Of a DNA stretch of 64,000 nucleotides, positions 99 through 63,456 are shown in pieces. The position numbers and the translations under genes were made by a program. The stretch's first letter is position 1. Every line of letters begins with the position of its first letter. This DNA comes from a bacterium (GTDB lineage Bacteria > Patescibacteriota > Minisyncoccia > Phycocordibacterales > UBA918), in NCBI GenBank assembly GCA_043719295.1, contig JAYSUD010000008.1, forward strand, positions 8,216 through 72,215. Reading direction: 5' to 3'. The notes below the pieces were generated by a model. That model was given only the letters and a program-made list of their open reading frames with translations, made no database searches and was not told the DNA's origin.

Positions 99-1460
99 AT
101 GATTAAAAAAATTAGTAAAGCACTCAATAAAAACCTTCTTACTCCAACTCCTGGTTCAATGAATCTTGAAATTCACGGTGGTAAAAAACTCGGCGGGATC
201 ATAGAGACAAACACCTCTAAAAATGGCGCAGTAGGACTTCTGTGTGCATCACTCCTTAACAAAGGAAAGACAACACTCTTGCACATGCCGAGGATTGAAG
301 AAGTCTACCGACTCATTGAGGTACTTGAGAGTATTGGTGTCAAAATTGAATGGAATGAGAACAATATCACCATCACTCCTCCGAAAGTCTATAACCTTAA
401 GAATATTGACGTTGAAGCTGCTCGAAAAACACGAAGTATTGTGATGTTTATTGGTCCGCTTATGCACCAGCTAAAAAAGTTTTCACTTCCGCAGTCAGGT
501 GGATGCAAACTTGGAAGTCGAACAGTGCGTCCACATTTCTATGCATTGGAACATTTTGGAGTACACATAGAAACAACAAACGATGCCTTTAAAGTAACCT
601 CAGAACCTGTATGTCCATCTGAAATCATATTGTACGAGTCAGGTGACACGGTCACTGAAAATGCACTCCTTGCTGCTTCGTTAACTAACGCTACAACAAC
701 CATCAAATACGCTTCTGCAAACTATATGGTTCAAGAGATGTGTGCATTCTTAATAGCTTGCGGAGTACAAATAGAAGGAGTTGGGACAACCACCCTTACC
801 GTGATAGGAGTTTCAAGTATCAATACCGACATTACCTACACACTAGCTGAAGATCCTACCGACAGTATGTTCTTTATCGCAGCTGCCATTGTCACGCACA
901 GTCCAATTACTATTACTCGTTGCCCAATTGAGTTTCTTGAACTTGAACTTCTCGTACTTGAAAAAATGGGGCTCCAATACTCAAAATCAAAAGTATATTT
1001 GTCACACAATGGCGTTACAAAACTTGTAGATCTTAAACTAAAACCAAGTAAGCTCACTGCGTCAGCTGAAAAAATCCACTCACGGCCCTACCCTGGTTTA
1101 AATGCTGACAACCTCCCTTTCTTTGCAGTTATCGCAACGCAAGCCACAGGTCAAACACTCATTCACGACTGGATGTATGAAAAGCGAGCAATTTACTTTA
1201 CCGAGCTAGACAAACTAGGTGCAGACACCGTCCTTGCAGATCCCCATCGAATTTATATCAACGGCCCAAGCAAACTGCGAGCAAATGAACTTGTCTGCCC
1301 TCCTGCGTTGCGCCCTGCTACGATACTTCTTATTGCAATGCTCGGAGCGTCAGGTCGCTCTGTCTTACGCAACATTTACAGCATCAACCGAGGCTACGAA
1401 AACCTAGTTGAACGCCTGACTTCATTAGGTGCTGAGGTACGATACTTAGAGGAGTTTTGA
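99..1460 (+). CDS. murA: UDP-N-acetylglucosamine 1-carboxyvinyltransferase (MurA). The reading frame is open from window position 3 and encodes an XRE-type HTH segment in frame upstream of the MurA domain.
   Basis: Product LEIHGGKKLGGIIETNTSKNGAVGLLCASLL... aligns with the MurA N-terminus and runs full length to YLEEF. Translation of positions 3-158 gives LTQSDLAKKIKTTQSAIARIESGKQNIS, a classic HTH_XRE, with no stop before the MurA domain. Confidence 0.9.
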   Translation: MIKKISKALNKNLLTPTPGSMNLEIHGGKKLGGIIETNTSKNGAVGLLCASLLNKGKTTLLHMPRIEEVYRLIEVLESIGVKIEWNENNITITPPKVYNLKNIDVEAARKTRSIVMFIGPLMHQLKKFSLPQSGGCKLGSRTVRPHFYALEHFGVHIETTNDAFKVTSEPVCPSEIILYESGDTVTENALLAASLTNATTTIKYASANYMVQEMCAFLIACGVQIEGVGTTTLTVIGVSSINTDITYTLAEDPTDSMFFIAAAIVTHSPITITRCPIEFLELELLVLEKMGLQYSKSKVYLSHNGVTKLVDLKLKPSKLTASAEKIHSRPYPGLNADNLPFFAVIATQATGQTLIHDWMYEKRAIYFTELDKLGADTVLADPHRIYINGPSKLRANELVCPPALRPATILLIAMLGASGRSVLRNIYSINRGYENLVERLTSLGAEVRYLEEF

Positions 1461-1470
1461 AGTGAGTAAA

Positions 1471-1600
1471 CGAGCGTAGCGACTATTACGAACTTCCGTC
1501 CAAGTTTCTGCTGCTGACCTAGAACATAACTGTCTGCCTCAGCGTTAGCTGTGCAGACAGTTATGTTCAGCAGAAACTTCTGGACGTCTCCAACGCTTAA
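1471..1600 (+). repeat. Intergenic hairpin repeat element, copy A (family also at 53631-53765 and, inverted, at 54301-54592).
   Basis: gagcgtagcgac...tttctgctgctgacctagaacataactgtctgc[ctcagcgttagctgt]gcagacagttatgttcagcagaaa: long imperfect hairpin with a conserved loop. Confidence 0.7.
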
Positions 1601-1681
1601 TTAACTCTACACTCTCGAAGTATGAGTCAATAAGAAGCTATCTTTTCTCGTTACGTAGCTATTTTGCTATACTGAACATCC

Positions 1682-3600: not shown

Positions 3601-3655
3601 TTGCAAGAGGTTGACTACTATTTTGAAGTATGAAAAATACTGACAACCTGAACAG
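3601..3655 (+). repeat. ~50-nt nested-hairpin module (TTGCAAGAGGTTG-[inner hairpin]-CAACCTGAACAG). Related copies at 26608-26656 and, inverted, 28254-28302.
   Basis: The outer stem AGGTTG/CAACCT and the flanks GCAAG...GAACAG are conserved. The inner hairpin differs between copies. Confidence 0.6.
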
Positions 3656-4089
3656 CTTCTGTAAGAAGTAAGCGACTTTTGCATTTAGCAGAAGCAGGAC
3701 GCTAAGCGTATAAGCTTCCTTGGAGGTCGCTTATACGAAGCGTCTACATAAGATACATATAGTCTCACTGTCGTGATACTTATGTATCTAAACTGCTGGA
3801 CGTCTCTTATATTAGGAGATTATGACTCATACGCATAAATATAAAAAGTAGTTTTTCCATAAAATTAGGTTATAGTACAACTATATCTATAGGACAAAGC
3901 TTGCACGAAAAAATCATAATGTCCTCAGGCTATTGCAGAAGAAGTGAGCTAAAATTAAAAAAACACATAAAACTGCCTTAAGAGGCGGTTTTAGTGCGAC
4001 AGAGCATCATCTGACATATACACAAGCAAAACGTTTAAAGCTGTAGGGTTGAAAATCATATTCCAACTGAGGTAATACGCTACGTTTTC

Positions 4090-11788: not shown

Positions 11789-12116
11789 TCCGGTGTAGCT
11801 CAGCGGTAGAGCAATCGACTGTAACATTGAACAATGTTCAAAATAGCAGCCTTATCGAGAAATTGATATTGCAAACAAGGTGAATTGCTGGAACCCCCAC
11901 GACACAAGTCAGGGCAATCAGCAGCCAAGCTTTTGGAGAAATCCAATTGAAGGTCCAGAGACTATCCCTTCGGGGAGTAGAATGCTCACAAATGCATTCG
12001 AAGCGCCTTGCACCGTCAGTGTAGTAATACAACCGGTGATGATATAGTCCACGCCATACAGTAACGTATGAATAAGTGTAATCGATTGGTCGCAGGTTCG
12101 AATCCTGCCGCCGGAG
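11789..12116 (+). tRNA. tRNA-Asn (anticodon GUU) interrupted by a group I intron in the anticodon loop. No CCA is encoded.
   Basis: Exons tccggtgtagctcagcggtagagcaatcgactgt + taatcgattggtcgcaggttcgaatcctgccgccggag fold into a 72-nt cloverleaf. Acceptor TCCGGTG/CGCCGGA, U8, T-loop TTCGAAT, G73, and a 5-nt variable loop that excludes Tyr. Confidence 0.75.
11823..12078 (+). ncRNA. Group I self-splicing intron (~256 nt) within tRNA-Asn.
   Basis: CCAAGCTTTTGG (P5-like), GTCCAGAGACTA (J6/7-P7) and ATATAGTCC (P7'/J8-7) match the group I consensus. The intron ends in G. Boundaries are good to about 2 nt. Confidence 0.7.
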
Positions 12117-12132
12117 CTTTAGAATTTAGAGA

Positions 12133-12153
12133 CCACCCGCAAGGGTGGTTTTT
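12133..12153 (+). terminator. Rho-independent terminator downstream of tRNA-Asn.
   Basis: ccacccgcaagggtgg followed by ttttt. Confidence 0.7.
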
Positions 12154-12162
12154 AAAATTCTT

Positions 12163-12184
12163 AGCTCCGGCGGCAGGATTCGAA
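12163..12184 (+). repeat. Perfect inverted copy (22 nt) of the tRNA-Asn 3' end.
   Basis: agctccggcggcaggattcgaa is the exact reverse complement of the tRNA 3' end ttcgaatcctgccgccggagct. Together with the tRNA it makes a ~35-bp inverted repeat enclosing the terminator. Confidence 0.85.
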
Positions 12185-12238
12185 GACCTTGCCTGATATC
12201 TTTTTGAGGTACGAAATAAAATAGTGACAAGGTGTACT

Positions 12239-12268
12239 GGTCGTGTAACGACCGAAATTCCTGCCGCC
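12239..12268 (+). repeat. tRNA-flanking module: hairpin with TGTAA loop, then GAAATTCC, then a direct copy of the tRNA 3' strand.
   Basis: ggtcgtgtaacgacc-gaaattcc-tgccgcc. The tail is complementary to 12170-12182. Homologous modules at 58386-58413, 62436-62462 and 63420-63456. Confidence 0.6.
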
Positions 12269-18804: not shown

Positions 18805-21800
18805 TATAATTTCCAGCTTCAGTTAAGCTTTCTACATTTGCAATATAACGAAGGTCATACACAGAGACAGTCTCATCTCCTACTCCCGTTGCAACTAAAT
18901 CAGGAAACGACGCGCTGTCAAAGGCCCACAATAGTGAATTATAGGGTGACTGAGGAATACCATTACCTGAGGAGGTTGCAATTCGCATACCAAATTGCTC
19001 AGTACCGAGCAATGTTGCTGAAGGAGTGGCACCAATAGGAAGAAGCGTTGTATCAACGCACGCAGTACACGTGAGTGTATTTCCTGAAAGAGTGATGGTA
19101 TATCCGCCTGGCGCATTGGTAATTGCTGAAATAGTGTGAGCAACAGTTGTTGATGTTGTATTTCCAAGAGTATCTCCTGTTGCATATTTAGTAGTCACTG
19201 AAGATAATCCACCAAAACCAACAGTTGTATCTGAAATAGCCATAGTTATGTATTGTTCAGGTCTTTTTTTAAGATACCGCACACTCATCATTGCAAAATC
19301 CCACGCACGCGTGTCCCCTGCGGCTAATCGAGTTGAGGCTGAGCTACGAAGACGCAAGTTCATCAAATTATTAACCGTATCTACAAAATCATCAGGACCA
19401 TTTTGTTGTTCTACTATTCTAAAGGTATCGAAATACCCATACGTTGTTGCAGCGTTTACGTCAGTTCCGGGGGTACTTTGCCACCCTGCTCCTGTTGCCT
19501 CTCCACCTAAACCTGAAGTCCCTGCATAGTTTTTAAGCTGTACGTCACTTGTGATTGTGGTCACATTCGAACGAAACTTTGCTGCATAGTGGATACCCGT
19601 AATTGCTGTTGAAGATGGAACGGTAATAGGAAATGAAATGTTTGCCGAATGTGCGTACTCTGCATTTACCGCATCGTCGTCGTTATCAAGCGCATAGTAT
19701 GTGGAAGGATATTCAATGGCACTTGTTTGTTGCCAAGTTGCCGTTGATGAAGTTGCCGTAACTGCTTCACTCATTGTGCGCGTATTGGCACAATTAGCTG
19801 CTGTTCCCGTACCCCACGAAATTTCACATAAAGCACTGTTACTGTTTACTGATCCGAGCATTAAGTACATACGATCAAACTGAAGATTGTACACAACTCC
19901 TGGAGCATTAGTTAAAAAGCGAACGCGTACCTCCCCTGTTGAGGAAATGTGGTTAGCCATATTAAATCCACCTATAGAAGTATCGTTGAAGGTAAAGGCC
20001 ATATCTGCATCAGTTGCACAAGTAGCCCCGCCTATAGTCGTTGAGGCGTGTTGCGTCCAGGTTGTATTTTGAAAGTCATAGAGATATATGCCGAACGTCA
20101 AAGCAACGTTTGAGCGACAGATTTCAGCTGAGAATAAAATGGTATTCATGCCAGTGTATGTTTGCACATTTTTAAATGAGTAGTAGAAATCGGCTGCAGT
20201 TGAAATTGCAGTCATAGGGACCGTCATTTTGGTTGCATCACTTCCCGTGACGGTAGTATAGATACCTCCAAGTGTGTCAGAGATGAAGTTTGTCGTCACG
20301 CCGGCTGACGTTGTTGCAAAACCTGCGGGTTCGTAAATTGGATCGATAGCGACCTCTACTTGCGCGAAGTCAATACGGTGTTCAACGGTGTTGTTAACTG
20401 TTGAGTATGAACGGAGAATAATACGTCCACTTGTTGACGAAGCGAAGTTTGAAAGTGGTGTTGCAATGATTGTTCCAGGAGACGTCACACGCGTAGAGAA
20501 GTATCCGTCATATATTTCATAGACGCGTGTTATGTCAGTGGTATCAGTAAGGTTTGCGTCTTGTGGCTCGAGGTTGCGCCAACCACCTCCGGTACAACCT
20601 GCAGTTGCTGCGTTATCAACACCAGTATTGTCTACCCAATCACAAATTTGGTGTTGGTAGTTACTTCCAGTAGTAATATTGCCTGACTCTATTGTCAGCA
20701 AAAGCTTATTTGCACTATAGAGTTCAACATTGTCAAAATACAGCTGTGCGTCAAAACCAGTTGTTGTCCGTCTAAACGACCAATAGTTAGAATCGTTACC
20801 GAGTGTGCCTTTATAGTCTCCGGCGTTTACAAAAGAAGAAGACGAAGCGGTTCCAACTACAAGTGAACCACCTGTTGCAATATACTGACTCCGCAACGTT
20901 ACCCTACTTTGTTCATTGATAAAACGAACACTCATCATCGCAAAATCAATATCGCGAGTATCGCCTGACGCAACTCGAGTAGAGGCTGAGGTACGGATTC
21001 GCATGTTCATCACGTTGTTCTTAGTATCAACAAAATCATCAGAACCGTTTTGTTGTTCTACTATTCTAAATGAATCGAAATATCCATAGGTTGTAGATAA
21101 GTTAATATCGGCCCCTGGAGTACTTTGCCAGAATGACCCTGCTGCTTCGCCCGATACTCCTGAAGTCCCCGCGAAGTTCTTAATTTGAATGTCGTTGGTG
21201 ATAGTTGTCACGTTCGACCGGTGTTTTACTGCATAGTGAATACCCGTAATAGAGGTAGTTGAAGCAAGCGTAATTGGAAATGACAAGTTTGAAGAGTATG
21301 CATACTCAGCGTTGACCGCATCATCGTCATTATCAAGTGGATAGTATGTTGACGGATACTCAATGGCACTTGTTTGTTGCCACGTTGCGGTTGTCGGTGT
21401 GTCAGTAATTCCCTCTGCCATAGTGCGCGTATTTGAGCAATTGGCTGCCGTTCCCGTACCCCACGAAATTTCACACAAAGAACTATCAGTATTAACTGAT
21501 CCGAGCATCAAGTACAGTTGATCGAACTGCAAGTTATAGACGACTCCAGGGCCATTGGTTAAAAAACGCACACGTATTTCACCTGTAGAGGAAATATGGT
21601 CTTCCATATTAAAACCACTAACTGATGTATCGTTAAAGGTAAATACCATGTCTCTGTCAGTTGCACAGGTACTTGCACCAATAGTTGTTGATGCATGCTG
21701 CGTCCATGAAGTATTTTGAAAATCATACACATATATTCCAAACGTCAGCGCAGTGTTTGAGCGACAAATTTCTCCTGAGAACAAAATCGTATTCATCCCC

Positions 21801-22699
21801 GTATACGTTTTCACATTTTTAAATGAAAAGTAGAAGTCTGCTGGGGTTGAAACTGCAGTCATGGGCACAGTTAGTTTGTTAGCATCACTTGCCGTTAACA
21901 GGGTGTAGGTAGGAGGCCCAACCAAGTCAGAGATAAAGTTTGTCGTTACACCCGCTGACGTTGTTGCAAAGCCTGCGGGTTGATAGACCGGGTCAACAGC
22001 AACTTCTACCTGTGCGAAGTCAATACGATGCTCAACGGTGTTGTTAACTGTTGAGTACGAACGAAGAATAAATCGACTATTGTTTGAAGCATTGATAAAA
22101 TTTGACAACGGAGTACTTACGACAATTCCAGGCGACGTCACTCGTGTTGAAAAATAACCATCGTAAATTTCATAGACCCGAGTGTTGTCGGTTGTATCAA
22201 CAAAGTTTGTCCGTCTTGGTTGGAGTGTTCGCCATCCGCCTCCAGTACATTGTGCATCAACCGCGTTATCAACCCCTGTAGTTGAGACAAAGTCACAGAT
22301 TTGATGTACGTAGTTACTTCCTGTTGTGATGTTCGTTGATTCAATAGTGATAAGTATTTTATTGGCACTGTAGAGTTCTACATTGTCAAAATACAGTTGT
22401 GCATCAAAGCCAGTTGTAGTACGTCTAAACGACCAATAGTTAGAATCGTTACCAAGTGTTCCTTTATAATCGCCCGCGTTAACAAAAGATGAGGACGATG
22501 CGGTTCCGACAACAAGTAAACTTCCCGTTGCCCGATACTGTCCTGTTGCAAGTGCTGTTTCTGGAAGTAATGAATCGGCCGTTTGAGTACCTGACCCCAA
22601 ATCAAAAAAACTAAGTCCTCCAAAACCAACAAAAAGTGCCATAAGAAAAAAGAAAGTTCCTATAGACCACTGTACTTTTTTTTCAGAGGATATACTCAT
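18767..22699 (-). CDS. Giant (1310 aa) surface or pilus-associated adhesin-like protein made of two ~550-aa tandem repeat units.
   Basis: N-terminal signal-anchor. The blocks SLLVVGTASSSSFVNAGDYKGTLGNDSNYWSFRRTTTGFDAQLYFDNVELYSANK... and ...ILRSYSTVNNTVEHRIDFAQVEV... occur twice in the same order. Thr/Ser/Asn-rich beta-type composition. Confidence 0.7.
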   Translation of the reverse strand: MSISSEKKVQWSIGTFFFLMALFVGFGGLSFFDLGSGTQTADSLLPETALATGQYRATGSLLVVGTASSSSFVNAGDYKGTLGNDSNYWSFRRTTTGFDAQLYFDNVELYSANKILITIESTNITTGSNYVHQICDFVSTTGVDNAVDAQCTGGGWRTLQPRRTNFVDTTDNTRVYEIYDGYFSTRVTSPGIVVSTPLSNFINASNNSRFILRSYSTVNNTVEHRIDFAQVEVAVDPVYQPAGFATTSAGVTTNFISDLVGPPTYTLLTASDANKLTVPMTAVSTPADFYFSFKNVKTYTGMNTILFSGEICRSNTALTFGIYVYDFQNTSWTQHASTTIGASTCATDRDMVFTFNDTSVSGFNMEDHISSTGEIRVRFLTNGPGVVYNLQFDQLYLMLGSVNTDSSLCEISWGTGTAANCSNTRTMAEGITDTPTTATWQQTSAIEYPSTYYPLDNDDDAVNAEYAYSSNLSFPITLASTTSITGIHYAVKHRSNVTTITNDIQIKNFAGTSGVSGEAAGSFWQSTPGADINLSTTYGYFDSFRIVEQQNGSDDFVDTKNNVMNMRIRTSASTRVASGDTRDIDFAMMSVRFINEQSRVTLRSQYIATGGSLVVGTASSSSFVNAGDYKGTLGNDSNYWSFRRTTTGFDAQLYFDNVELYSANKLLLTIESGNITTGSNYQHQICDWVDNTGVDNAATAGCTGGGWRNLEPQDANLTDTTDITRVYEIYDGYFSTRVTSPGTIIATPLSNFASSTSGRIILRSYSTVNNTVEHRIDFAQVEVAIDPIYEPAGFATTSAGVTTNFISDTLGGIYTTVTGSDATKMTVPMTAISTAADFYYSFKNVQTYTGMNTILFSAEICRSNVALTFGIYLYDFQNTTWTQHASTTIGGATCATDADMAFTFNDTSIGGFNMANHISSTGEVRVRFLTNAPGVVYNLQFDRMYLMLGSVNSNSALCEISWGTGTAANCANTRTMSEAVTATSSTATWQQTSAIEYPSTYYALDNDDDAVNAEYAHSANISFPITVPSSTAITGIHYAAKFRSNVTTITSDVQLKNYAGTSGLGGEATGAGWQSTPGTDVNAATTYGYFDTFRIVEQQNGPDDFVDTVNNLMNLRLRSSASTRLAAGDTRAWDFAMMSVRYLKKRPEQYITMAISDTTVGFGGLSSVTTKYATGDTLGNTTSTTVAHTISAITNAPGGYTITLSGNTLTCTACVDTTLLPIGATPSATLLGTEQFGMRIATSSGNGIPQSPYNSLLWAFDSASFPDLVATGVGDETVSVYDLRYIANVESLTEAGNYNATLTYTITGSF
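19050..22540 (-). repeat. ~1.65-kb tandem duplication (2 units, ~70-75% nucleotide identity) inside the giant CDS.
   Basis: cactcatcatcgcaaaatc at ~20935 matches cactcatcattgcaaaatc at ~19274. gtaccccacgaaatttcaca(c/t)aaag occurs at ~21463 and ~19812. Period ~1.65 kb. Confidence 0.75.
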
Positions 22700-26401: not shown

Positions 26402-26607
26402 GTGTTTTGTATATATAATTGACAATACAAAAAGCATATACCATCGTATACAAAATGTAAAGTTAACTTTACATTTTATCTGTGGAAAAACTTAGGGGTG
26501 ATAAAATCAGAGGATTTATGAAAACGAGTGAGAAGTGATACAAAATCCACCACAAGAGTATTTCCATTTTTATAGTCGTCTTACGACTCCATAAAAATTA
26601 GGTCACT

Positions 26608-27705: not shown

Positions 27706-28191
27706 CTATAAATAACTATCAAAATAGATTGCATGGCAAGTATAGCCACCCACATTCTTCTGCAAATAGTCCTGATGGTAACTTTCAGCAGGCCAAAAAC
27801 GTGTATACGGTTCAAGTGATGTAACAACAGGATTGTCCCAACGTTCACTCTCATTCACTACCTCAATCATCTCCTCTCCAATTTCTTTTTCTTTCTCATC
27901 TTTGTAGAAAATTGCAGAACGATACGAAGTGCCTTTGTCATTTCCCTGTTGATTTAAGGTTGTCGGGTTATGAACCTGGAAAAAGAAATCAAGAATTTGT
28001 TTGTATGAAATTACATTCTCATCATAGGTAACAAGAAGTGCTTCGGCGTGACCTTCATGTGATTCATACGTTGGATTTTCACCTTTGCCACCACTGTATC
28101 CAGCTTCAGTATCAAGAACACCTTTAAGATCACGAAAGAGTTCTTCCAATCCCCAGAAACACCCGCCAGCTATGATTGCTTCTTTTTGCAT
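27706..28191 (-). CDS. msrA: Peptide methionine sulfoxide reductase MsrA.
   Basis: MQKEAIIAGGCFWGLEELF... GCFWG active site. 161 aa. Confidence 0.9.
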   Translation of the reverse strand: MQKEAIIAGGCFWGLEELFRDLKGVLDTEAGYSGGKGENPTYESHEGHAEALLVTYDENVISYKQILDFFFQVHNPTTLNQQGNDKGTSYRSAIFYKDEKEKEIGEEMIEVVNESERWDNPVVTSLEPYTRFWPAESYHQDYLQKNVGGYTCHAIYFDSYL

Positions 28192-28250
28192 AGTTATTAT
28201 TATATTAAGAATTAACTTCTATTCTTTACTATCACCAGATAGCGACTCAG
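28151..28250 (-). repeat. Promoter/5'-CDS unit of msrA (copy 1, functional). Duplicated at 28487-28590 and, diverged, at 28321-28405.
   Basis: ~100 nt (ccccagaaacacccgccagctatgattgcttctttttgcatagttattattatattaagaattaacttctattctttactatca) recur nearly identically 336 nt upstream. Confidence 0.85.
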
Positions 28251-28320
28251 AATCTGTTCAGGTTGTCGCTCTTTTTCCAAAAGAGCAGGCAACCTCTTGC
28301 GAAGTGACATTTAGTCACTT

Positions 28321-28405
28321 CTCACCCCAGAAACATCCCCCTGCAAGTAAGGCTTCTTTTTGCATATAGTCTGATATATAAATTATGTACTTCTATTCTT
28401 ACAGA
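28321..28405 (-). pseudogene. Diverged decoy copy of the msrA start (would encode MQKEALLAGGCFWGEK*).
   Basis: On the minus strand reads ATGCAAAAAGAAGCCTTACTTGCAGGGGGATGTTTCTGGGGTGAGAAGTGA, then a hairpin and the nested-hairpin module. Confidence 0.6.
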
Positions 28406-28486
28406 ATCTGTCCACTCATTGGATTTTTTATTTCACTTCGTTCATAAAAACTCACAATGAGTCTTGCGACAGTCCCCCGGACTGTC

Positions 28487-30332: not shown

Positions 30333-30531
30333 AATATGTTCGCAGAAAAATGACTCATAATTGAGTCATTTTTCTACACATTTTAATCACTTGTACAAAA
30401 TCCTATATAACCTAGACAAATGAGTGCAATTCGAGACGCACAAACAAAAAAGGACGAGTCGTACGCATAGTACGGTGAGGAGTATTTTCGTGCAGTGCAA
30501 CGAAGAAGTGTGCCATTTGTGTAGGTTATGT

Positions 30532-31134
30532 TTACTTCCCTTCAACCAAATACCTATACACCTGGAATCCAAGTATTGCGCCGATAATCGGCGCAAACAA
30601 ATACACAAAAGTAAGTGAATTGAGCGCAAATGCTACTGCGGGGTTTAATATTCCCGAAGCGCCTAAAAATGAAGCAATTAAAATTCCGAACAGAAGTGAT
30701 CCTCCTACCACCATTCCTGACATTTGTTCTTTGGCTTTCCCGTATACAACCGATGCAATCCCAAAGTTAAAGAAAAATGCTCCAAGCATCTCAGCTAAAA
30801 AAACCGTCACTTCAAACGGTGCAACTATAGCCGGAGTGACCGTGAAAAAAACTTTTGCAACAACTATTGCGCCAACTGCTCCAATGATTTGTGCAACAAT
30901 GTACCGAATTCCCTCAATACGTGAAATTTTTCGAACTGACATAAGTCCAAGTGTCACTGACGGATTAATGTGACAACCTGATACTGCTCCAATTGTGTAA
31001 ACAAAAAGACCAAGGGTAAAACCTGCGATAAGTGGTACCGCCATTGGAAGTGTTCCTGTAAATGAAACTGCTCCTAACACAACGGTTGCAAGTGCAAATG
31101 TTCCAACTGCTTCAGCAATATATTTTTGATACAT
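30532..31134 (-). CDS. Aquaporin / MIP-family channel.
   Basis: Two half-helix motifs HINPSVTLG and ILNPAVAFA (NPS/NPA), six TM helices. 200 aa. Confidence 0.8.
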   Translation of the reverse strand: MYQKYIAEAVGTFALATVVLGAVSFTGTLPMAVPLIAGFTLGLFVYTIGAVSGCHINPSVTLGLMSVRKISRIEGIRYIVAQIIGAVGAIVVAKVFFTVTPAIVAPFEVTVFLAEMLGAFFFNFGIASVVYGKAKEQMSGMVVGGSLLFGILIASFLGASGILNPAVAFALNSLTFVYLFAPIIGAILGFQVYRYLVEGK

Positions 31135-40620: not shown

Positions 40621-40656
40621 AGAAATTCATTGTAACACCTTTAGCTCAACCGTTTG

Positions 40657-40709
40657 CTGCCAGACTTGGACTCGAACCAAGATAACATCCTCCAGAGGGA
40701 TGTGTCCTA
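40657..40709 (-). pseudogene. Partial copy of tRNA-Gln (anticodon arm through 3' end, lacking acceptor 5' and D arm) ~55 nt downstream of the intact gene.
   Basis: Minus strand: ...gtaggacacatccctctggaggatgttatcttggttcgagtccaagtctggcag matches the intact tRNA from the D-loop end to the 3' end. Confidence 0.65.
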
Positions 40710-40767
40710 CAGTCAAATGAGTGAGCGAAACGAGGAAATGGATATTTCTTATTATTTACGTGCTTTG

Positions 40768-40838
40768 CTGCCAGACTTGGACTCGAACCAAGATGATATC
40801 CTCCAGAGGGATACATCCTACCATTAGATGATCTGGCA
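40768..40838 (-). tRNA. tRNA-Gln (anticodon CUG); no encoded CCA.
   Basis: Minus strand tgccagatcatctaatggtaggatgtatccctctggaggatatcatcttggttcgagtccaagtctggcag. Acceptor TGCCAGA/TCTGGCA, anticodon loop CUCUGGA, T-loop TTCGAGT. Confidence 0.7.
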
Positions 40839-43430: not shown

Positions 43431-43591
43431 ATTTTTTTAAATTTTCATTAGTATAGAACTTTCACAAATGGATGCAATTCGAGACGTACAAATAAAATAT
43501 GACGAAACGTACTTGATGTACGTTGAGGATTATTTTTTGCAGTACAACGAAGAAGTGCGCCGTTTGTGTAGGTTCTATATAGTATAACAGA

Positions 43592-45304: not shown

Positions 45305-45470
45305 AAGTACAGTATACCTTACAGGTACTGTCTACTCACTTGTTTTTTATCCACTCCGTTCCCAAAAGACTCAGTGAGTCTTGCGAAATGCTTCAAGCAT
45401 TTCTCACCATGCACCAGTAGCGAACATGTTGCTATGTGTGGATGAATACTCTGAAAGTGATACAGAATAA

Positions 45471-51255: not shown

Positions 51256-53619
51256 ATGGCAAAAACAGCGACAAAGACAACATTGGTGATTGTTGAATCC
51301 CCTGCAAAGGCAAAAACTATCGAGAAATATCTAGGACCTGGATTTAAGGTGCGTTCTTCTATTGGTCACGTACGTGATTTACCTAAAAGCAACAAAGACG
51401 CCGTTGACATTGAAGCAGGGTTTGTTCCTCGCTATATCATTTCTCCAGGAAAAGAAAAGGTTATTGCTGAACTTCAAAGAGAGGCTAAAAATGCTGACTT
51501 GGTACTGTTGGCATCTGACCCCGACCGTGAAGGAGAAGCTATTGCGTGGCATGTAGCTGAACTCATAAAAAAAGAAAACAAAAATCAGAAGCGAATTGTA
51601 TTTCATGAAATCACCGAAGACGCGGTTAAAGAAGCCCTCCTCCATCCCCGTGCAATTGATGTAAACCTTAAAGAGGCACAAGAGGCACGTCGGGTGCTTG
51701 ATAGACTCGTGGGGTATGACCTTTCGGGACTCATATGGAAAAAAGTTCGGTATGGACTTTCTGCCGGAAGAGTACAGTCCCCCGCGTTACGAATCTTGAT
51801 GGAACGTGAACGAGAAATACGTGCATTTAACCCTGAAGCTTTTTTCGTACTCACCGCACATACAGAGAAAGCAAAAATGCAGATTCCTTTTACCTGTGCT
51901 GAAGAACCAAAGGTACAGAAGGAGGCTGACCGCATTAAAACTGTCGGAGAAAAAAATAATTGGGAGGTTACTTCTATTAAAGAGACCGAAGCAAAGCGAT
52001 CTCCAAAACCTCCTTTTACTACTTCAACCTTACAGCAAGCTGCATCAACTCGACTTGGTTTTTCTCCATCACGCACCATGGGTGCTGCTCAAAAGCTCTA
52101 TGAAGCGGGACACATTACCTACATGCGAACAGACAGTACAACCATGAGCAAAGTTGCGCTTACACAAATTCTTGCACTTATAAGCAAGGACTATGGGAAA
52201 GAATATCTCCAACCACGAACCTTTAAAACTAAAAGTAAGTCGGCCCAAGAAGCGCACGAAGCGGTACGTCCAACAAACTTCAAACATCGATCTTCAGGAT
52301 TAACCGGTGATCAAAAAGCACTCTATGAACTTATTTGGAAACGTTCTGTCTCTTCTCAGATGGCAGATGCTCGGCTATTGCGCACGAAAATATTAACCAA
52401 CATCACAAATGACAAGGAGCCAATTCCTGATTTTAGTGTGAACGGATCACGAGTAATCTTTGACGGATGGCTCAAGGCTGACGTTGGTGCACGTGGCGAA
52501 GATACAGAAGTCCCAAAGCTAACCATAGGCGACACGCTTACGCTCAAAGAAATTGAGATTGAAGCAAAACACACACAACCTCCAAGTCGCTATTCCGAAG
52601 CAGGACTTATTAAAGAACTTGAAAAGCGAGGTATTGGTCGTCCTTCAACCTATGCTTCAATCATGAAGACTATTATTGATCGGGGATATACTATCAAAGA
52701 GGGACGCACACTTATTCCAACCGACACCGGAGACGTTGTCTCATCATTCCTTGAAGAGCACTTTAGTGAATACATTGGGGACGACTTTACAAGTGGAATG
52801 GAAGACAAACTCGACTTAATTGCAGAAGGCAAAGCACAGTATAAAAAAGTGTTAACCGATTTTTATAAACCTTTCTCGAAAGCAGTTGAAGCAAAAGAAG
52901 ATATTCCAAAACTCACCAATCTAGGTGATGGACCAAAAGAATTTCCTTGTCCAAAGTGTGGCAAACCTATGGTCATAAAGTTAGGGCGTGGTGGAAAGTT
53001 TCTCTCATGTGGCACCTTCCCCGATTGTGATGGAGCGCGCACCCTTGAAGGTGGAGAAGTTGGAGAAAGTGAATCACTTGGAAATCACCCAGAAACAGGT
53101 GAAGCAATATTTGTACTTGATGGTCGTTTTGGACCCTATGTACAACTAGGATCAACTCCTGATAAAAAAGACAAGAAAGCTCCGAAGCCAAAACGCGCAT
53201 CGTTGCCTGACGGGAAACTCCCCGCTTTAGTCACACTTGAAGAAGCAGTTCATTATTTAATTCTGCCGCGTGAACTCGGGATACATCAAGCAACGGGAGA
53301 ACCAATCCAAGCGAACACCGGAAAGTTTGGTCCCTATGTAGTACATGCAGGTGACTACCGTTCACTTAAGGGTGCAGATAACCCATACGACATTACGCTC
53401 GAACGGGCACTCAAAATCTTCGCAGAACCAAAACAAGGACGTAAAGGTGAAAAGCTTGTAAAAGAACTCGGACTAAACCCTAAAACAAAAAAGATGGTAA
53501 ATGTGTACGAATCAAAATCAGGAAGGTATTTACGCAAAGGTTTCAAACGATTGTCACTACCTGATGATGTAGATCTAGAAAAGTTTACTATTGAAGATGC
53601 GTTACTTATTTTAAAATGA
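51256..53619 (+). CDS. topA: DNA topoisomerase I.
   Basis: MAKTATKTTLVIVESPAKAKTIEKYLG (Toprim), active-site Tyr region, C-terminal zinc ribbon CPKCGKPMVIKLGRGGKFLSCGTFPDC. Confidence 0.9.
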   Translation: MAKTATKTTLVIVESPAKAKTIEKYLGPGFKVRSSIGHVRDLPKSNKDAVDIEAGFVPRYIISPGKEKVIAELQREAKNADLVLLASDPDREGEAIAWHVAELIKKENKNQKRIVFHEITEDAVKEALLHPRAIDVNLKEAQEARRVLDRLVGYDLSGLIWKKVRYGLSAGRVQSPALRILMEREREIRAFNPEAFFVLTAHTEKAKMQIPFTCAEEPKVQKEADRIKTVGEKNNWEVTSIKETEAKRSPKPPFTTSTLQQAASTRLGFSPSRTMGAAQKLYEAGHITYMRTDSTTMSKVALTQILALISKDYGKEYLQPRTFKTKSKSAQEAHEAVRPTNFKHRSSGLTGDQKALYELIWKRSVSSQMADARLLRTKILTNITNDKEPIPDFSVNGSRVIFDGWLKADVGARGEDTEVPKLTIGDTLTLKEIEIEAKHTQPPSRYSEAGLIKELEKRGIGRPSTYASIMKTIIDRGYTIKEGRTLIPTDTGDVVSSFLEEHFSEYIGDDFTSGMEDKLDLIAEGKAQYKKVLTDFYKPFSKAVEAKEDIPKLTNLGDGPKEFPCPKCGKPMVIKLGRGGKFLSCGTFPDCDGARTLEGGEVGESESLGNHPETGEAIFVLDGRFGPYVQLGSTPDKKDKKAPKPKRASLPDGKLPALVTLEEAVHYLILPRELGIHQATGEPIQANTGKFGPYVVHAGDYRSLKGADNPYDITLERALKIFAEPKQGRKGEKLVKELGLNPKTKKMVNVYESKSGRYLRKGFKRLSLPDDVDLEKFTIEDALLILK

Positions 53620-53630
53620 ACTGAGCTACA

Positions 53631-53765
53631 GAGCGTAGCGACAATAGCGAAGTTCGTTCCTAATTTTCTGCTGCTGACCTAGAACATACTGTAGAACCTC
53701 GGCGCTAGCCGTGTTCTACAGTATGTTCAGCAGAAAATAGGAACACCCCAACGCTCAGATATCTC
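53631..53765 (+). repeat. Intergenic hairpin repeat element, copy B.
   Basis: gagcgtagcgacaatagcgaagttcgttcctaattttctgctgctgacctagaacatactgtagaac[ctcggcgctagccgt]gttctacagtatgttcagcagaaaataggaac. Confidence 0.7.
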
Positions 53766-53870
53766 CGCCACTTACAACAACTAATTATTTCGAGTTTATC
53801 CTAATTTTGAATTAACAAAGGGCACACATGACGTGCGCCCTTTTGGCATCTGCTCGATGCCCTCATATTA

Positions 53871-54227
53871 TCAGAAAACCGTGCCACAAGCTCCGATTTT
53901 CTTAGGCCCTAAAGAAGTCGTAGTCGCAAGAATTTTCCCTTGCCAACCGTTTCGCTCCGTATTAGCGCGATTGATTGCGTCAATGGCTTGACGCGTCTGA
54001 CCTGCAAAAGGCTTCCGCACAACCAACAGTGTTTGAACAGGAGCAACAGGCTCTGCTACAATCCGCACCGGTGCCAAAGCAACTTTTTTCTTAGGCTTTT
54101 TTGGCACCTTTGATGCATCCAAGGCAGGCAAAATTGAATTTTCGCCAAAATATTTAAGCTCTTGCCTTGCTGGTATACGTGGACTTCCTTTAGGCATTTT
54201 GCCCCTCACTTTCTTTTGTTTAAACAA
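53871..54227 (-). CDS. Hypothetical basic protein.
   Basis: 118 aa, Lys/Pro-rich, no recognised motif. Confidence 0.3.
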   Translation of the reverse strand: MFKQKKVRGKMPKGSPRIPARQELKYFGENSILPALDASKVPKKPKKKVALAPVRIVAEPVAPVQTLLVVRKPFAGQTRQAIDAINRANTERNGWQGKILATTTSLGPKKIGACGTVF

Positions 54228-54300
54228 ACTGGTCTTTCCAGCAAGTGCTATTTAACCATACTAACTGTTTTTGTCAACTTTTTGCATCATTGTATATGTG

Positions 54301-54592
54301 TATGCGGAGGTCTATTGTTATTGGAGAGTTCCAGCAGTTTCTGCTGAGCCTAGTGTAGGACACTGCTAACGCTGAGGTCCTACACTTGTCTCTAGGTCAG
54401 CAGCAGAAACTGTAAACAAAGTTCGCCATTGTCGCTTGCGTATATGCGGAGTCATATTGTTGTTGGAGAGTTCCAGCAGTTTTCGCTGAGTAACATTCAA
54501 AGCACAGCTAACGCTGAGGCTTTGAATGTTACTCTGGGTCAGCGCAAAAACTGGGTGAAAAGCGAATACTTGGAGCTTCGCAAGACTCATTG
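54301..54592 (-). repeat. Two tandem copies (C 54301-54440, D 54441-54592) of the hairpin repeat element in inverted orientation; a third partial unit at ~54640-54675.
   Basis: Both units share the tatatgcggag...gagagttccagcag leader and the ctcagcgttagc(a/t)gt loop (rc). Their stems differ but stay complementary (covariation). Confidence 0.7.
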
Positions 54593-54724
54593 AGGTTCTA
54601 TGGAACGAAGTGGAGTAGAATCCAATGAGTGGACAGCTTCTGTAAGAAGAGGAGTTCGCCATTCTCGCTTGCGCTCTGTGGCTCACTCCTTGCTAACAAA
54701 CCGTTACGGCCATACAATGAATTT

Positions 54725-56275
54725 ATGCGAACGGTTAAAGAAATACTGGTTGAACTTAACTCTCCTACCGAGGCTGATACGGTCCTTATTAATAAGGCCT
54801 ATGCACTCACCTCTTTGGCTTTTAGAGACATTAAACGCTACTCAGGTGAACCGTACATGTCACACATTTCTGAGGTGGGCTACAAGCTTGCAAAAATGGG
54901 TATGGGGCCACGTACTATCGCGGCTGGTTTGCTTCACGATATCATTGAGGATACCCCAACTACAGCTGACGACATCAAAGAACAGTTTGGAGAAGAAATA
55001 CTCTTTTTGGTTGAAGGGGTTACTAAACTAAGTTCTGTACGCTACTACGGAACGGATCGCCACAACGAAAGTCTCCGAAAACTTTTTGTCGCTACTTCTC
55101 AAGATATCCGTGTGTTAATCATTAAGCTTAATGACCGGCTCCACAACATGGAAACGTTACAGTTCGTTCCCAAAGAAAAGCAAATGCGTATCGCACGCGA
55201 GACCCTAGAAATCTACGTACCAGTTGCCCACCGTCTTGGAATGGGGCGAATTCGTAAGGAACTTGAGGACCTTGCCTTTCCCTATGTGTATCCAGAAGAA
55301 TATAAAAAAGTATGTGACCTTCTTGCAAAGAGCACTGAGAAGTCACTTCTCATGCTTGAGCGTGAGCGTAAATCAATGCAAAAACGTCTTGCTGATTCTG
55401 GACTCCTTAAGTTTAATACCTCATATCGAGTAAAAGGTCTCTATAGCCTCTTTCACAAACTCAAGCGAAAAGATTGGGATATTCATGACGTATACGACCT
55501 CCTTGCGATGCGGGTTGTAGTTAACTCTGTTGAGGATTGTTACAAGGCACTTGGTGTCATTCACGAAATGTGGCGACCATTGCCAAAACGAATGAAAGAC
55601 TACATTGCATTTCCAAAACCAAACGGCTATAAATCAATTCACACAACAGTTACGACACCTCACGGGACAATTCTTGAAATTCAAATTCGTACTCAACAGA
55701 TGCATCACGAATCAGAGTACGGAGTTGCATCACACTTGATCTATAAACAACAGGCAGTGCAAGGTGACCAAATAGCTTCAACAAGTTCTTGGTTTAGTAA
55801 CCTTATTCCATCACTGTTTAAACCATTCGCATGGAAAGAAAGTAAAAATTCTGTTCCGATTAAAAGTGCGAAAGATGTGCCCCATACAGAAAAAATTCCC
55901 TATTGGATAAACCAGATTGGTGAAATGTACGCGTCGGAAAAAACTACTGGTGAAGAGTTCATGTCCGACATGCGTAAGGATTTCTTCAGTAACAGAATCT
56001 TCGTTTTTACTCCAAATGGCGACGTTGTTGATTTACCCATGGGTGCAAACCCTATCGACTTTGCATACGCCATCCACTCAGAAATTGGTGACCATATTGC
56101 GGGGGTTCATGTAAACAACAAACTCGTGCAGTTTGATACAGAACTTAAAAATGGTGACATCGTGCGCGTTGAAACAAAGAAGTCTGCACACCCAACTGCA
56201 AAGTGGATTTTGATGGCACAGACGTCGATTGCAAAACGGAAGATTAGAGCGTACCTTGCTGAACATTCAGTGTAG
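54725..56275 (+). CDS. Small bifunctional (p)ppGpp synthetase/hydrolase (HD + RelA/SpoT synthetase + TGS, no ACT domain).
   Basis: HD motif (LLHDIIEDT), synthetase region (DLLAMRVVV...YKSIHTTV), TGS (VFTPNGDVVDLPMGANPIDFAYAIHSEIG). Start at MRTVKEIL, after the repeats. Confidence 0.8.
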   Translation: MRTVKEILVELNSPTEADTVLINKAYALTSLAFRDIKRYSGEPYMSHISEVGYKLAKMGMGPRTIAAGLLHDIIEDTPTTADDIKEQFGEEILFLVEGVTKLSSVRYYGTDRHNESLRKLFVATSQDIRVLIIKLNDRLHNMETLQFVPKEKQMRIARETLEIYVPVAHRLGMGRIRKELEDLAFPYVYPEEYKKVCDLLAKSTEKSLLMLERERKSMQKRLADSGLLKFNTSYRVKGLYSLFHKLKRKDWDIHDVYDLLAMRVVVNSVEDCYKALGVIHEMWRPLPKRMKDYIAFPKPNGYKSIHTTVTTPHGTILEIQIRTQQMHHESEYGVASHLIYKQQAVQGDQIASTSSWFSNLIPSLFKPFAWKESKNSVPIKSAKDVPHTEKIPYWINQIGEMYASEKTTGEEFMSDMRKDFFSNRIFVFTPNGDVVDLPMGANPIDFAYAIHSEIGDHIAGVHVNNKLVQFDTELKNGDIVRVETKKSAHPTAKWILMAQTSIAKRKIRAYLAEHSV

Positions 56276-58317: not shown

Positions 58318-58413
58318 GGGAGGGGGTCGAAAAGGTTGCCTGATATTTTGTGACGTAAGGAAACAAAATATCGATAACCTGTACTGAACATGTAATGTTC
58401 GATTCCCCTCGAC
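58318..58413 (+). repeat. tRNA-Leu flanking modules: inverted copy of the tRNA T-loop/acceptor (58318-58331) followed by the TGTAA-hairpin module (58386-58413).
   Basis: gggagggggtcgaa = rc of ttcgaccccctccc. Then gaacatgtaatgttc-gattcc-cctcgac. Confidence 0.55.
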
Positions 58414-62075: not shown

Positions 62076-62462
62076 CTCGAGTAAAGAAAAAACATAATGC
62101 TGAAGCATTATGTTTTTTCTTTAGAACCTGACCTGCGTCAGGTTCGTGCTCGAGCGAGAGACGGAGACATGTCGCCTGCGACAGTCGAGTCGGGGTCGAG
62201 AGTACTTATGATTTGAGGAGGTACGACGATAATCATTAGTAACTCGTGACCGCAGTGAGCCCACGAGGCATAGCTTTTTGAAAAAATGCGTAGTGCGATT
62301 CGAAGCCCGATTGAGATAATTTTGGAGCGAAGCGAACAAAATTATCCAATTGGGATACTGGTCGTGTAAGCAAAGCTTTCTTTCACTGCATTCCTATTAC
62401 AAATAAAAATGAACTTTTCTTTGAATACTCATTTGTGAAAGTAACGACCGAAATTCCTCGTT
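62076..62462 (+). repeat. Highly structured tRNA-Trp 3' flank: nested stems pairing with the tRNA 3' end, then the TGTAA-hairpin/GAAATTCC module.
   Basis: gctcgctcgag (62071-81) pairs ctcgagcgag (62151-60). gagcccacgagg (62257-68) is the exact complement of the tRNA 3' cctcgtgggctc. Module gtgaaagtaacgaccgaaattcctcg at 62436-62462. Confidence 0.55.
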
Positions 62463-63295: not shown

Positions 63296-63456
63296 GGCGT
63301 CGGGAGGGATTTGCACCACAAGAGTATTTCCATTTTTATATTCCCTTCAGTCATTAAAAATTAAGTCAAGACCTTTTGAGATAGATTTGACTGAAAGGAA
63401 AATATACCCAAAAGGTGTACCGGTCATGTAATGACCAAAATTCCCTCCCGGCGCAC
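63296..63456 (+). repeat. tRNA-Tyr flanking modules: inverted 3'-end copy (63296-63313), a 27-nt block shared with 26546-26572, and the TGTAA-hairpin module ending in a direct copy of the tRNA 3' strand (63420-63456).
   Basis: ggcgtcgggagggatttg is close to rc of caaatccctcccggcgc. caccacaagagtatttccatttttata is repeated at 26546. ccggtcatgtaatgacc-aaaattcc-ctcccggcgcac. Confidence 0.6.

Follow-up and report, generated by a model that had tools for sequence, protein, structure and literature searches.

The window, by which we mean the whole 64-kb stretch of DNA analysed here (G+C about 0.40), belongs to a Paceibacteria/Kaiserbacteria-like CPR genome and contains murA, topA and a gene for a RelA/SpoT protein (rel), three names that had been assigned beforehand and that are backed by Pfam; dprA and parB were also recognised by Pfam. 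The window starts inside murA (1-1460). Its MurA (99-1460, cut at the window start) is 73-83% identical to homologues from MAGs labelled Kaiserbacteria, Paceibacteria, Parcubacteria or Saccharibacteria, and in this lineage MurA is fused to an N-terminal HTH_3 domain (homologues of 499 aa, PF01381 + PF00275). An NCBI contig of 72.9 kb encodes a 499-aa MurA identical to it. Directly behind murA and topA, and in the spacer before rel, lie copies of an intergenic hairpin element that is the subject of this analysis.

Copies and anatomy of the hairpin element

To locate the element we used R1, a covariance model built from seven full copies and run over the window with filters off. Exactly four full-copy matches were returned (119-143 bits), at the four places where full copies had been proposed; the next best score (~21 bits) belonged to the antisense strands of these same loci, and no further full copy was found in the window. 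The element and its fragments are distributed as follows, copy number being counted for the 64-kb window and a few contigs of relatives:

1458-1612 (+): copy A, directly 3' of murA; R1 1471-1595(+), 143 bits; nhmmer 1463-1614
3790-3806 (+): isolated fragment AAACTGCTGGACGTCTC, the 3' strand of the lower and outer helix
15274-15288 (-): 15-mer resembling the 5' box, AGCGACAATGGCGAC; isolated, no hairpin after it, status uncertain
53617-53775 (+): copy B, directly 3' of topA; R1 53630-53753(+), 126 bits; nhmmer 53622-53773
53818-53847 (no strand assigned): bidirectional terminator-like hairpin AAAGGGCACACATGACGTGCGCCCTTTTGG, between the convergent topA and ORF 53871-54227
54296-54446 (-): copy C; R1 54319-54443(-), 127 bits; nhmmer 54299-54446
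54440-54592 (-): copy D; R1 54461-54584(-), 119 bits; nhmmer 54440-54589
54627-54686 (-): partial unit, leader GAGCCACAGAGC and 5' box AGCGAGAATGGCGAA (54655-54669) joined to another repeat module, CTCCTCTTCTTACAGAAGCTGTCCACTCATTGG

Copies C and D are arranged head-to-tail with a 142-nt period. The loop 12-mer CTCRGCGYTAGC has 4 matches in the window against 0.4 expected, a number reached in none of 100 shuffles. The smaller pieces that had been suspected were recovered as well: the partial unit sought near 54640-54675 is a 5' box followed by a different repeat module (R1 score 12.5 bits, E 0.5), it abuts a promoter-like site of rel (54690-54718), and its junction with the other repeat module is found also in the relative L086; the 3' box fragment sought near 3785-3800 has 0.01 matches expected by chance and sits within a repeat-rich spacer of 760 nt.

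Copy A was dissected along its plus strand:

1458-1460 (+): murA stop codon TGA
1461-1471 (+): leader AGTGAGTAAAC
1472-1486 (+): 5' box GAGCGTAGCGACTAT
1497-1504 with 1577-1586 (+): outer helix, with a CT bulge on the 3' side (1580-1581)
1505-1512 with 1569-1576 (+): lower helix
1513-1521 (+): conserved bulge GCTGACCTA
1522-1537 with 1553-1568 (+): variable inner helix, 16 bp
1538-1552 (+): apical loop CTCAGCGTTAGCTGT, holding a 4-bp mini-helix closed by GUUA
from 1587 (+): tail TCTCCAACG, CTCCAAC...

The corresponding parts of the other copies are:

Copy B (+): stop codon TGA 53617-53619; 5' box 53631-53645; loop CTCGGCGCTAGCCGT 53698-53712; tail ending in CTCCGCC
Copy C (-): 5' box ACGCAAGCGACAATGGCGAA; loop 54362-54376
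Copy D (-): loop 54504-54518; perfectly paired "D-type" inner stem GAGTAACATTCAAAGC

Loop CTCGGCGCTAGCCGT of copy B is a variant in which the change in the mini-helix is compensated. Copy C has two mismatches in the inner stem and one in the mini-helix, and therefore looks slightly decayed. This anatomy revises the original prediction in several respects. The proposed extent of ~130 nt was too short, since nhmmer delimits about 150 nt for each of the four copies: on the 5' side the unit reaches the stop codon (TGAAsTGAG...), and on the 3' side it continues ~20 nt further, to CTCCGC in copies B, C and D. The 5' box said to be common to all copies is absent from copy D, which has another 5' module (CTTGCGA, a small hairpin, TTTCACC) that is present elsewhere in the window too. 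What had been called a 15-nt loop is indeed a near-invariant tip but is not all open, as it holds the 4-bp mini-helix with a GUUA or GCUA tetraloop, and the "3' box" exists as the 3' strand of the lower and outer helix. We would accordingly describe the unit as a 5' leader starting at, or 3-4 nt past, a stop codon and continuing with the box GAGCGTAGCGAyTAT, followed by a 5-bp outer helix carrying the CT bulge on its 3' side and by a lower helix of 8-10 bp, to which the long form adds an inner module made of the conserved 9-nt bulge, a 16-bp helix of free sequence and fixed length, and the conserved 15-nt tip.

The window holds further repeats and structured features. An 80-bit match to the group I intron family (Rfam RF00028) covers 11828-12071; just past the intron, TTCGAATCCTGCCGCCGGAGC (~12097-12120) resembles the 3' half of a tRNA at a place where ARAGORN calls none, and a 42-nt stretch past the intron has an inverted copy at 12143-12184. 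A repeat family (...GTGACAAGGTGTACTGGTCGTGTAACGACCGAAATTCCT) closely follows tRNA genes, namely the one with the intron, tRNA-Leu, tRNA-Trp and tRNA-Tyr, with sites at 12212-12262, 58359-58395, 62333-62369, 62441-62458 and 63395-63445, and a 68-nt stretch overlapping tRNA-Gln (40767-40838, -) is duplicated 111 nt away at 87% identity (40653-40838), where ARAGORN calls one tRNA only. The start of msrA (27706-28191, -) is present three times, in 81-nt copies at 28146, 28320 and 28485 that each end in the ATG region (MQKEA..GGCFWGE) and have other repeat modules between them, as if the 5' end of the gene had been invaded by repeats and duplicated. A second repeat of ~130 nt (30404-30534 and 43452-43581, 78-84% identity) has inverted-repeat ends, AACCTAGACAAATG ... 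CATTTGTGTAGGTT, and no Rfam match at gathering score. Finally, 19269-22397 holds large internal direct repeats with a period of about 1650 nt (70-83% identity), inside a 1310-codon ORF without a Pfam match.

Pairing and conserved unpaired motifs

Minimum free energy z-scores are -7.8, -9.2, -3.7 and -7.1 for copies A, B, C and D, respectively, and copy A, in which 36 of 36 pairs are Watson-Crick, folds as RNA at -59.5 kcal/mol. Covariation was measured on nine copies, the four of the window and those recovered from relatives. Compensated double changes, altering both sides, were found in 19 of the 36 pairs, and standard pairs occupy 93.8% of cells versus 75.3% in column shuffles, none of 500 shuffles reaching the observed value; sliding the 3' partners lowers pairing to 33-43% of cells. 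The stems thus change while staying complementary and the loop is kept, just as had been noticed in copies C and D.

This constraint differs between the parts of the hairpin. Identity in every pairwise comparison of copies is 11-15/15 in the loop and 7-9/9 in the bulge, while the inner arms are identical at only 3-14/16 positions; when the window is compared with the relatives yielding these copies, the four-fold degenerate sites of topA prove saturated, with an identity of only 44-54%. With the inner arms free but paired and the four-fold sites saturated, it follows that the stems evolve at a roughly neutral rate within the limits set by pairing. Conservation of the unpaired loop and bulge lies far above what neutral change would leave.

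The kind of pairing was informative as well. Inner helices are 16/16 Watson-Crick at constant arm length in copies A, B, D and in two copies from relatives (L083B and L086D), and the inner stems contain about 2 G.U in roughly 125 cells. Such perfect Watson-Crick inner helices would fit DNA-level generation through template switching, by which a single event can create perfect base pairing for a whole hairpin (PMC10710096). Across all helices, the foldable non-Watson-Crick pairs comprise 7 G.T on the element strand versus 1 A.C (one-sided binomial about 0.04), and this wobble excess, together with the sense orientation behind stop codons, leans towards a strand-specific, probably transcribed structure. 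Altogether, these results show that selection keeps one strand foldable and keeps the sequences of the loop, the bulge and the 5' box; these wobble and conservation features would be expected of a transcribed RNA and of a single-stranded DNA intermediate of transposition alike. The original prediction had taken the covariation as the signature of a selected RNA structure rather than a drifting repeat. Complementarity is indeed kept, but the contrast is a false one: the repeat moves or is exchanged (see below), and REPINs, which are mobile DNA, have been described with the same signature, namely modules that are conserved, a spacer of fixed length and compensatory changes as a common feature (Bertels & Rainey 2011, PMC3116915).

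Filled sites, empty sites and module exchange

Contigs of close relatives were obtained through TopA homologues, and the site behind topA could be followed from one genome to the next (identities relative to the window TopA):

L082 (TopA 100%): copy identical to B behind topA
L085 (TopA 95%): element behind topA
L083 (TopA 95%): orthologous element behind topA, inner stem differing from B
L084 (TopA 94%): orthologous element behind topA, inner stem differing from B
L086 (TopA 88-89%): site empty; ordinary hairpin and T-run terminator
L092 (TopA 88-89%): site empty; ordinary hairpin and T-run terminator
L093 (TopA 88-89%): site empty; short spacer only
L087 (TopA 87%): site empty; ordinary hairpin and T-run terminator

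This one orthologous site carries three different inner stems (GAACATACTGTAGAAC, GAGTTACATTCAGAGC and GAGCATAGTTTAG...). The whole topA-rel spacer of L083 measures 187 nt and holds a single element; that of the window spans about 1.1 kb, with copies B, C and D, other repeats and an unannotated ORF of 118 codons. This basic ORF (53871-54227, -), which has no Pfam match, lies between the inverted copies B(+) and C(-); it is missing from L083, the closest relative with a complete topA-rel spacer, and its place is taken by an unrelated small ORF in L092 (64 aa) and L086 (about 69 aa). Several independent assemblies break inside the palindrome. We did not accept these contig breaks as proof of high copy number; a long perfect palindrome also interrupts de Bruijn assembly, which makes the breaks ambiguous.

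The murA site was compared with 80 loci of more distant relatives, taken from a murA homologue scan, and with L091, whose MurA is 89% identical. The place of copy A holds a G+C-rich hairpin and a small gene in L091, and the murA 3' site is without a related element in 79 of the 80 more distant loci, many of which have a hairpin followed by a T-run; only L069 has a related short element behind murA. A loop-motif match in L074 was rejected as a copy, being located inside the murA coding sequence. The reverse situation was met at serS, whose 3' end is empty in the window: L092 has a full copy directly behind serS (R1, 134 bits), where ~190 nt starting with TGAAGTGAG replace the TAATAAT of L086 between closely aligning flanks. 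No clear target-site duplication or excision footprint could be defined in this comparison of a filled (L092) and an empty (L086) site. Copies are therefore acquired, lost and swapped among sites as well as among related genomes. Close relatives differ in whether a given orthologous site is occupied, so the element is no fixed RNA gene, and its absence behind the same essential genes in such relatives makes it dispensable at each site.

Exchange was also apparent within the unit. The D-type inner stem is 13-14/16 identical at three non-orthologous sites of three genomes, namely behind serS in L092 (GAGTTACGTTCAGTGC), in copy D of the window (GAGTAACATTCAAAGC) and behind topA in L083 (GAGTTACATTCAGAGC), and the stems of the window and of L083 differ by two changes, both compensated. 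Over leader and 5' box, copy A and the serS copy of L092 agree at 41 of 44 nt, including TGAAGTGAGTAAAC, while their cores differ, that of the serS copy being D-type. 5' modules, cores and tails occur in varying combinations, which shows that modules recombine. Given saturated neutral sites, a D-type stem at three sites in three genomes requires recent movement or exchange, and is not accounted for by vertical descent of fixed loci; this sharing of stem types between genomes could stem from homologous recombination between strains and gene conversion, with no transposition.

The family extends to short forms. R1 detected these at 25-34 bits in L012, L020, L062, L069, L086 and L092, and one more was found in L083 through a 5'-box pattern search. 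Most have the same 5' box, which is diverged in L069 and unrecognisable in L020. The outer 5-bp helix covaries among L092, L062, L069, L020 and L012 (GTTCC/GGAAC, GTCC/GGAC, CTTCC/GGAAG, GCTCT/AGAGC), and in the same five the CT bulge is present, as is a helix of 8-10 bp whose sequence is free; the short forms of L086 and L083 are one continuous stem from which the CT bulge is absent. The apical loop is small and pyrimidine-rich. Because short forms combine the same outer parts with a small loop, the long form looks like a short form that carries the inner hairpin module in its loop. An unrelated repeat module is nested in the loop of the L012 short form (L012 1218-1349), and this module, CACCACAAGAGTATTTCCATTTTTATAGTC, occurs twice in the window, at 26548-26577 and 63314-63343.

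Other repeat modules, CAGCTTCTGTAAGAAG, GTCCACTCATTGG and CTTGCGA-small variable hairpin-TCTCACC, recur beside the element in varying order (window 3628-3664, 28248-28470, 45318-45410 and 54577-54655; L086 8380-8560; L062 ~2050-2090). The 5' box of the element lies, in L086, in the loop of a CAGCTTCTGTAAGAAG/CTTCTTACAGAAGCTG hairpin.

Gene-adjacent copies share a characteristic placement. Behind murA, topA, serS and a 343-codon ORF, the 5' box is in sense orientation and begins 9 or 14 nt past the stop codon of the long reading frame. The stop codon is TGA in three of four independent filled sites and TAA or TAG at the empty orthologous sites; as TGA makes up 30% of window stop codons, this is only suggestive of TGA being part of the element. 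Copy B is located between the topA stop and the terminator-like hairpin AAAGGGCACACATGACGTGCGCCCTTTTGG (reported by the terminator scan in its minus-strand form, 53836-53822), hence inside the presumed topA transcript, and is probably transcribed with topA. The scan of 1300-1800 gave no terminator-like site, and none after copy A. The C/D array, like those of L086 and L092, is found in the divergent spacer ahead of rel, not behind a gene, and one short form (L083 7438, L086 4367) runs antisense to the called genes on both sides of it. Copies A and B are on the plus strand and C and D on the minus strand, in a window whose cumulative GC skew has no turning point.

Nature of the element

Known families were searched at several levels. 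A gathering-threshold scan of the whole window against Rfam 15 returned only the group I intron and 4 tRNAs, and permissive scans (53560-54760, 1440-1690 and L062 2040-2200) gave chance-level hits only (E >= 0.4, far below gathering), so that the element has no Rfam counterpart at either threshold. No transposase, integrase, RAYT/Y1_Tnp or reverse transcriptase was found by Pfam in the 61 ORFs of the window, the genes called in L083, L086, L087 and L092 likewise include none of these, and no autonomous IS sharing the element ends is present in the window or the related loci. Two exact patterns had 0 matches in viral contigs; blastn gave only chance matches of 33-38 nt to phages and nothing to plasmids. 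An exact-pattern scan of metagenomes (CTGACCYAGA...) produced one chance match in a high-GC coding region, with a pattern so strict that it would miss a real L086 copy (CTGACCAAGA). The variable stems have no match within 2 mismatches in the window or loci except their own arms and D-type relatives, and so do not look like guides.

Several defined classes were considered and rejected. The element is not an intrinsic terminator, as it is followed by CTCCAAC and no T-run, the scan behind murA was empty, and relatives have canonical terminators there. An integron attC was dismissed because the helix base GTTCC ... GGAAC has the opposite order to R''/R' and because no integrase matched. A gene-specific cis-regulatory RNA is at odds with positions behind murA, topA, serS and another ORF and in a divergent spacer, and with a presence that varies among close relatives. 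Hammerhead and other small ribozymes, group II intron domain V, retron msd, 6S or Y RNA, IS omega RNAs and bridge RNAs were rejected on sequence features or for want of an Rfam match, and no partner gene is present for any of these candidates.

Comparison with known extragenic repeats was more productive. A REPIN is a repetitive extragenic palindrome that folds as a long hairpin, and the element, with four intergenic copies in 64 kb and 36 pairs, agrees with this. Both are non-autonomous extragenic units of ~100-150 nt that form one long hairpin, occur singly, in tandem clusters and nested, and have conserved modules flanking a segment of which only length and pairing matter; in line with this pattern, the element combines a fairly conserved lower helix (AGTTTCTGCTG with CAGCAGAAACT) with an inner helix of free sequence. 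However, REPINs conserve their two inverted REP arms, whereas conservation in the element is highest in an unpaired tip, an asymmetric bulge and a single-stranded 5' box, and its 5' and 3' halves are not equivalent. REPINs are mobilised by RAYT transposases, none of which was found in the sequence available here; abutment on a stop codon is a trait of the element that does not define REPINs; there is no sequence similarity, and the host of the element is a CPR bacterium.

Bacterial MITEs (Correia/NEMIS of Neisseria, ERIC, RUP, BOX, the Rickettsia palindromic elements) are 100-170 nt long with long inverted arms, are often co-transcribed as hairpin RNA and show insertion polymorphism between strains, and BOX has modular variants. 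Classical MITEs keep their arm sequence because the TIRs bind transposase, and have target-site duplications and related full-length IS; the arm sequence of the element, in contrast, is free. The ends of copy B, and partly those of copy A, show a short complementarity (GAGCGT with ACGCTC). The SDR of Nostoc punctiforme, units of 21-27 nt in cyanobacteria, are reportedly modules nested inside other repeats or hairpins (an observation attributed to Elhai et al. 2008), and the element shares with them the occurrence of different modules in the same structural context (the loop of the L012 short form), with no sequence relation. PMC3116915 lists the SDR among comparable classes. The attC sites, imperfect hairpins of single-stranded DNA behind ORFs, resemble the element in keeping structure rather than sequence and in having extrahelical bases, but they have R''/R' cores of the form RYYYAAC ... 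GTTRRRY and a variable tip; the tip of the element is conserved, and its upstream genes are essential housekeeping genes, not cassettes. In its working the element would be most like REPINs or MITEs, and we place it in no named family.

We somewhat favour the view that the element belongs to a REPIN/MITE-like family of palindromic repeats, small, modular and non-autonomous, which is restricted to one lineage and hosted by a CPR bacterium of the Paceibacteria type. The conserved unpaired motifs would then be the recognition site of a trans-acting protein, either a mobilising enzyme or a host nucleic-acid-binding factor, which would be encoded outside the window. From their sense landing behind stop codons, we infer that the elements are co-transcribed; the RNA would form a long 3'-UTR hairpin that may be tolerated or mildly useful as a 3'-end barrier, and copy A would stand where relatives have an intrinsic terminator.

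Other explanations account for part of these observations. One is a host-selected cis-acting RNA module of 3' UTRs. Its hairpin, with the conserved loop and bulge, would be bound or processed by an RNase or an RNA-binding protein, with the effect of stabilising or ending the mRNA upstream or of shielding it from the next gene, and duplication and recombination would have spread it secondarily. Sense placement right behind stops in four independent gene contexts, the position of copy B ahead of a terminator, where it should be transcribed, that of copy A where many relatives have an intrinsic terminator, the covarying stems with kept unpaired motifs, the 7-to-1 ratio of sense-strand G.U and an orientation not tied to one replication strand all speak for such a module. 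We nevertheless hold it rather unlikely, for other sequence stands behind the same essential genes (topA in L086, L087 and L092, murA in L091), the C/D tandem and the L086 and L092 arrays occupy a divergent promoter region instead of the 3' end of a gene, one short form runs antisense to both neighbours, and the hairpin has no U-run, no Rfam relative and inner stems nearly free of G.U. These last stems, 16/16 Watson-Crick in five copies, are what would be expected of selfish or neutral DNA palindromes whose complementarity is kept mechanically, by intrastrand template switching or quasi-palindrome correction, as one template switch can perfect a whole hairpin (PMC10710096), and the assemblies that break inside the palindrome agree with this. 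Left unexplained by a mechanical origin, which we consider very unlikely, are the conservation of a non-palindromic loop, bulge, 5' box and CT bulge despite saturated neutral sites, the sense wobble excess, the orientation and stop-codon placement, and the same architecture with other stem sequences in distant relatives.

Transcripts could also have been the source of the copies. Gene-adjacent copies are all sense and start at the stop codon, and the structural constraint is strand-specific, as if the element were an RNA-mediated (retro-type) or RNA-guided mobile module whose 3'-UTR transcript is the intermediate or guide and whose loop is the handle of a reverse transcriptase or nuclease; but no RT, TnpB, IscB or IS110-type gene occurs in the window or related loci, there is no poly-A or other retro-insertion hallmark, and the variable stems are unlike guides, which leaves this the least probable of the readings. 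Quite unlikely too, but worth stating, is a further possibility: a mobile structured RNA module rather than mobile DNA (a 3'-UTR cassette with its own stop codon, copied or targeted via its transcript along a retro-type or RNA-guided route), or a docking site, domesticated by CPR bacteria, for a lineage-specific RNA-binding protein that would set mRNA 3' ends where canonical terminators were replaced.

The element is a genuine family of intergenic repeats in a single Paceibacteria lineage, structured, modular and either mobile or exchangeable, that had not been described before. CPR genomes measure about 1 Mb and tend to be regarded as streamlined, with little mobile DNA, and our literature search on the topic returned no description of such repeats in the Candidate Phyla Radiation. 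That a structured, modular repeat family is evidently dynamic shows that selfish or semi-domesticated elements turn over even in these genomes. It also has practical consequences: the elements break short-read assemblies exactly at their sites, which matters for MAG quality, and they offer strain-level markers. More generally, covariation and a conserved loop do not by themselves identify an RNA gene. Finally, the strongly conserved loop, bulge and 5' box point to a predicted sequence-specific nucleic-acid-binding protein in organisms that are not yet genetically tractable.
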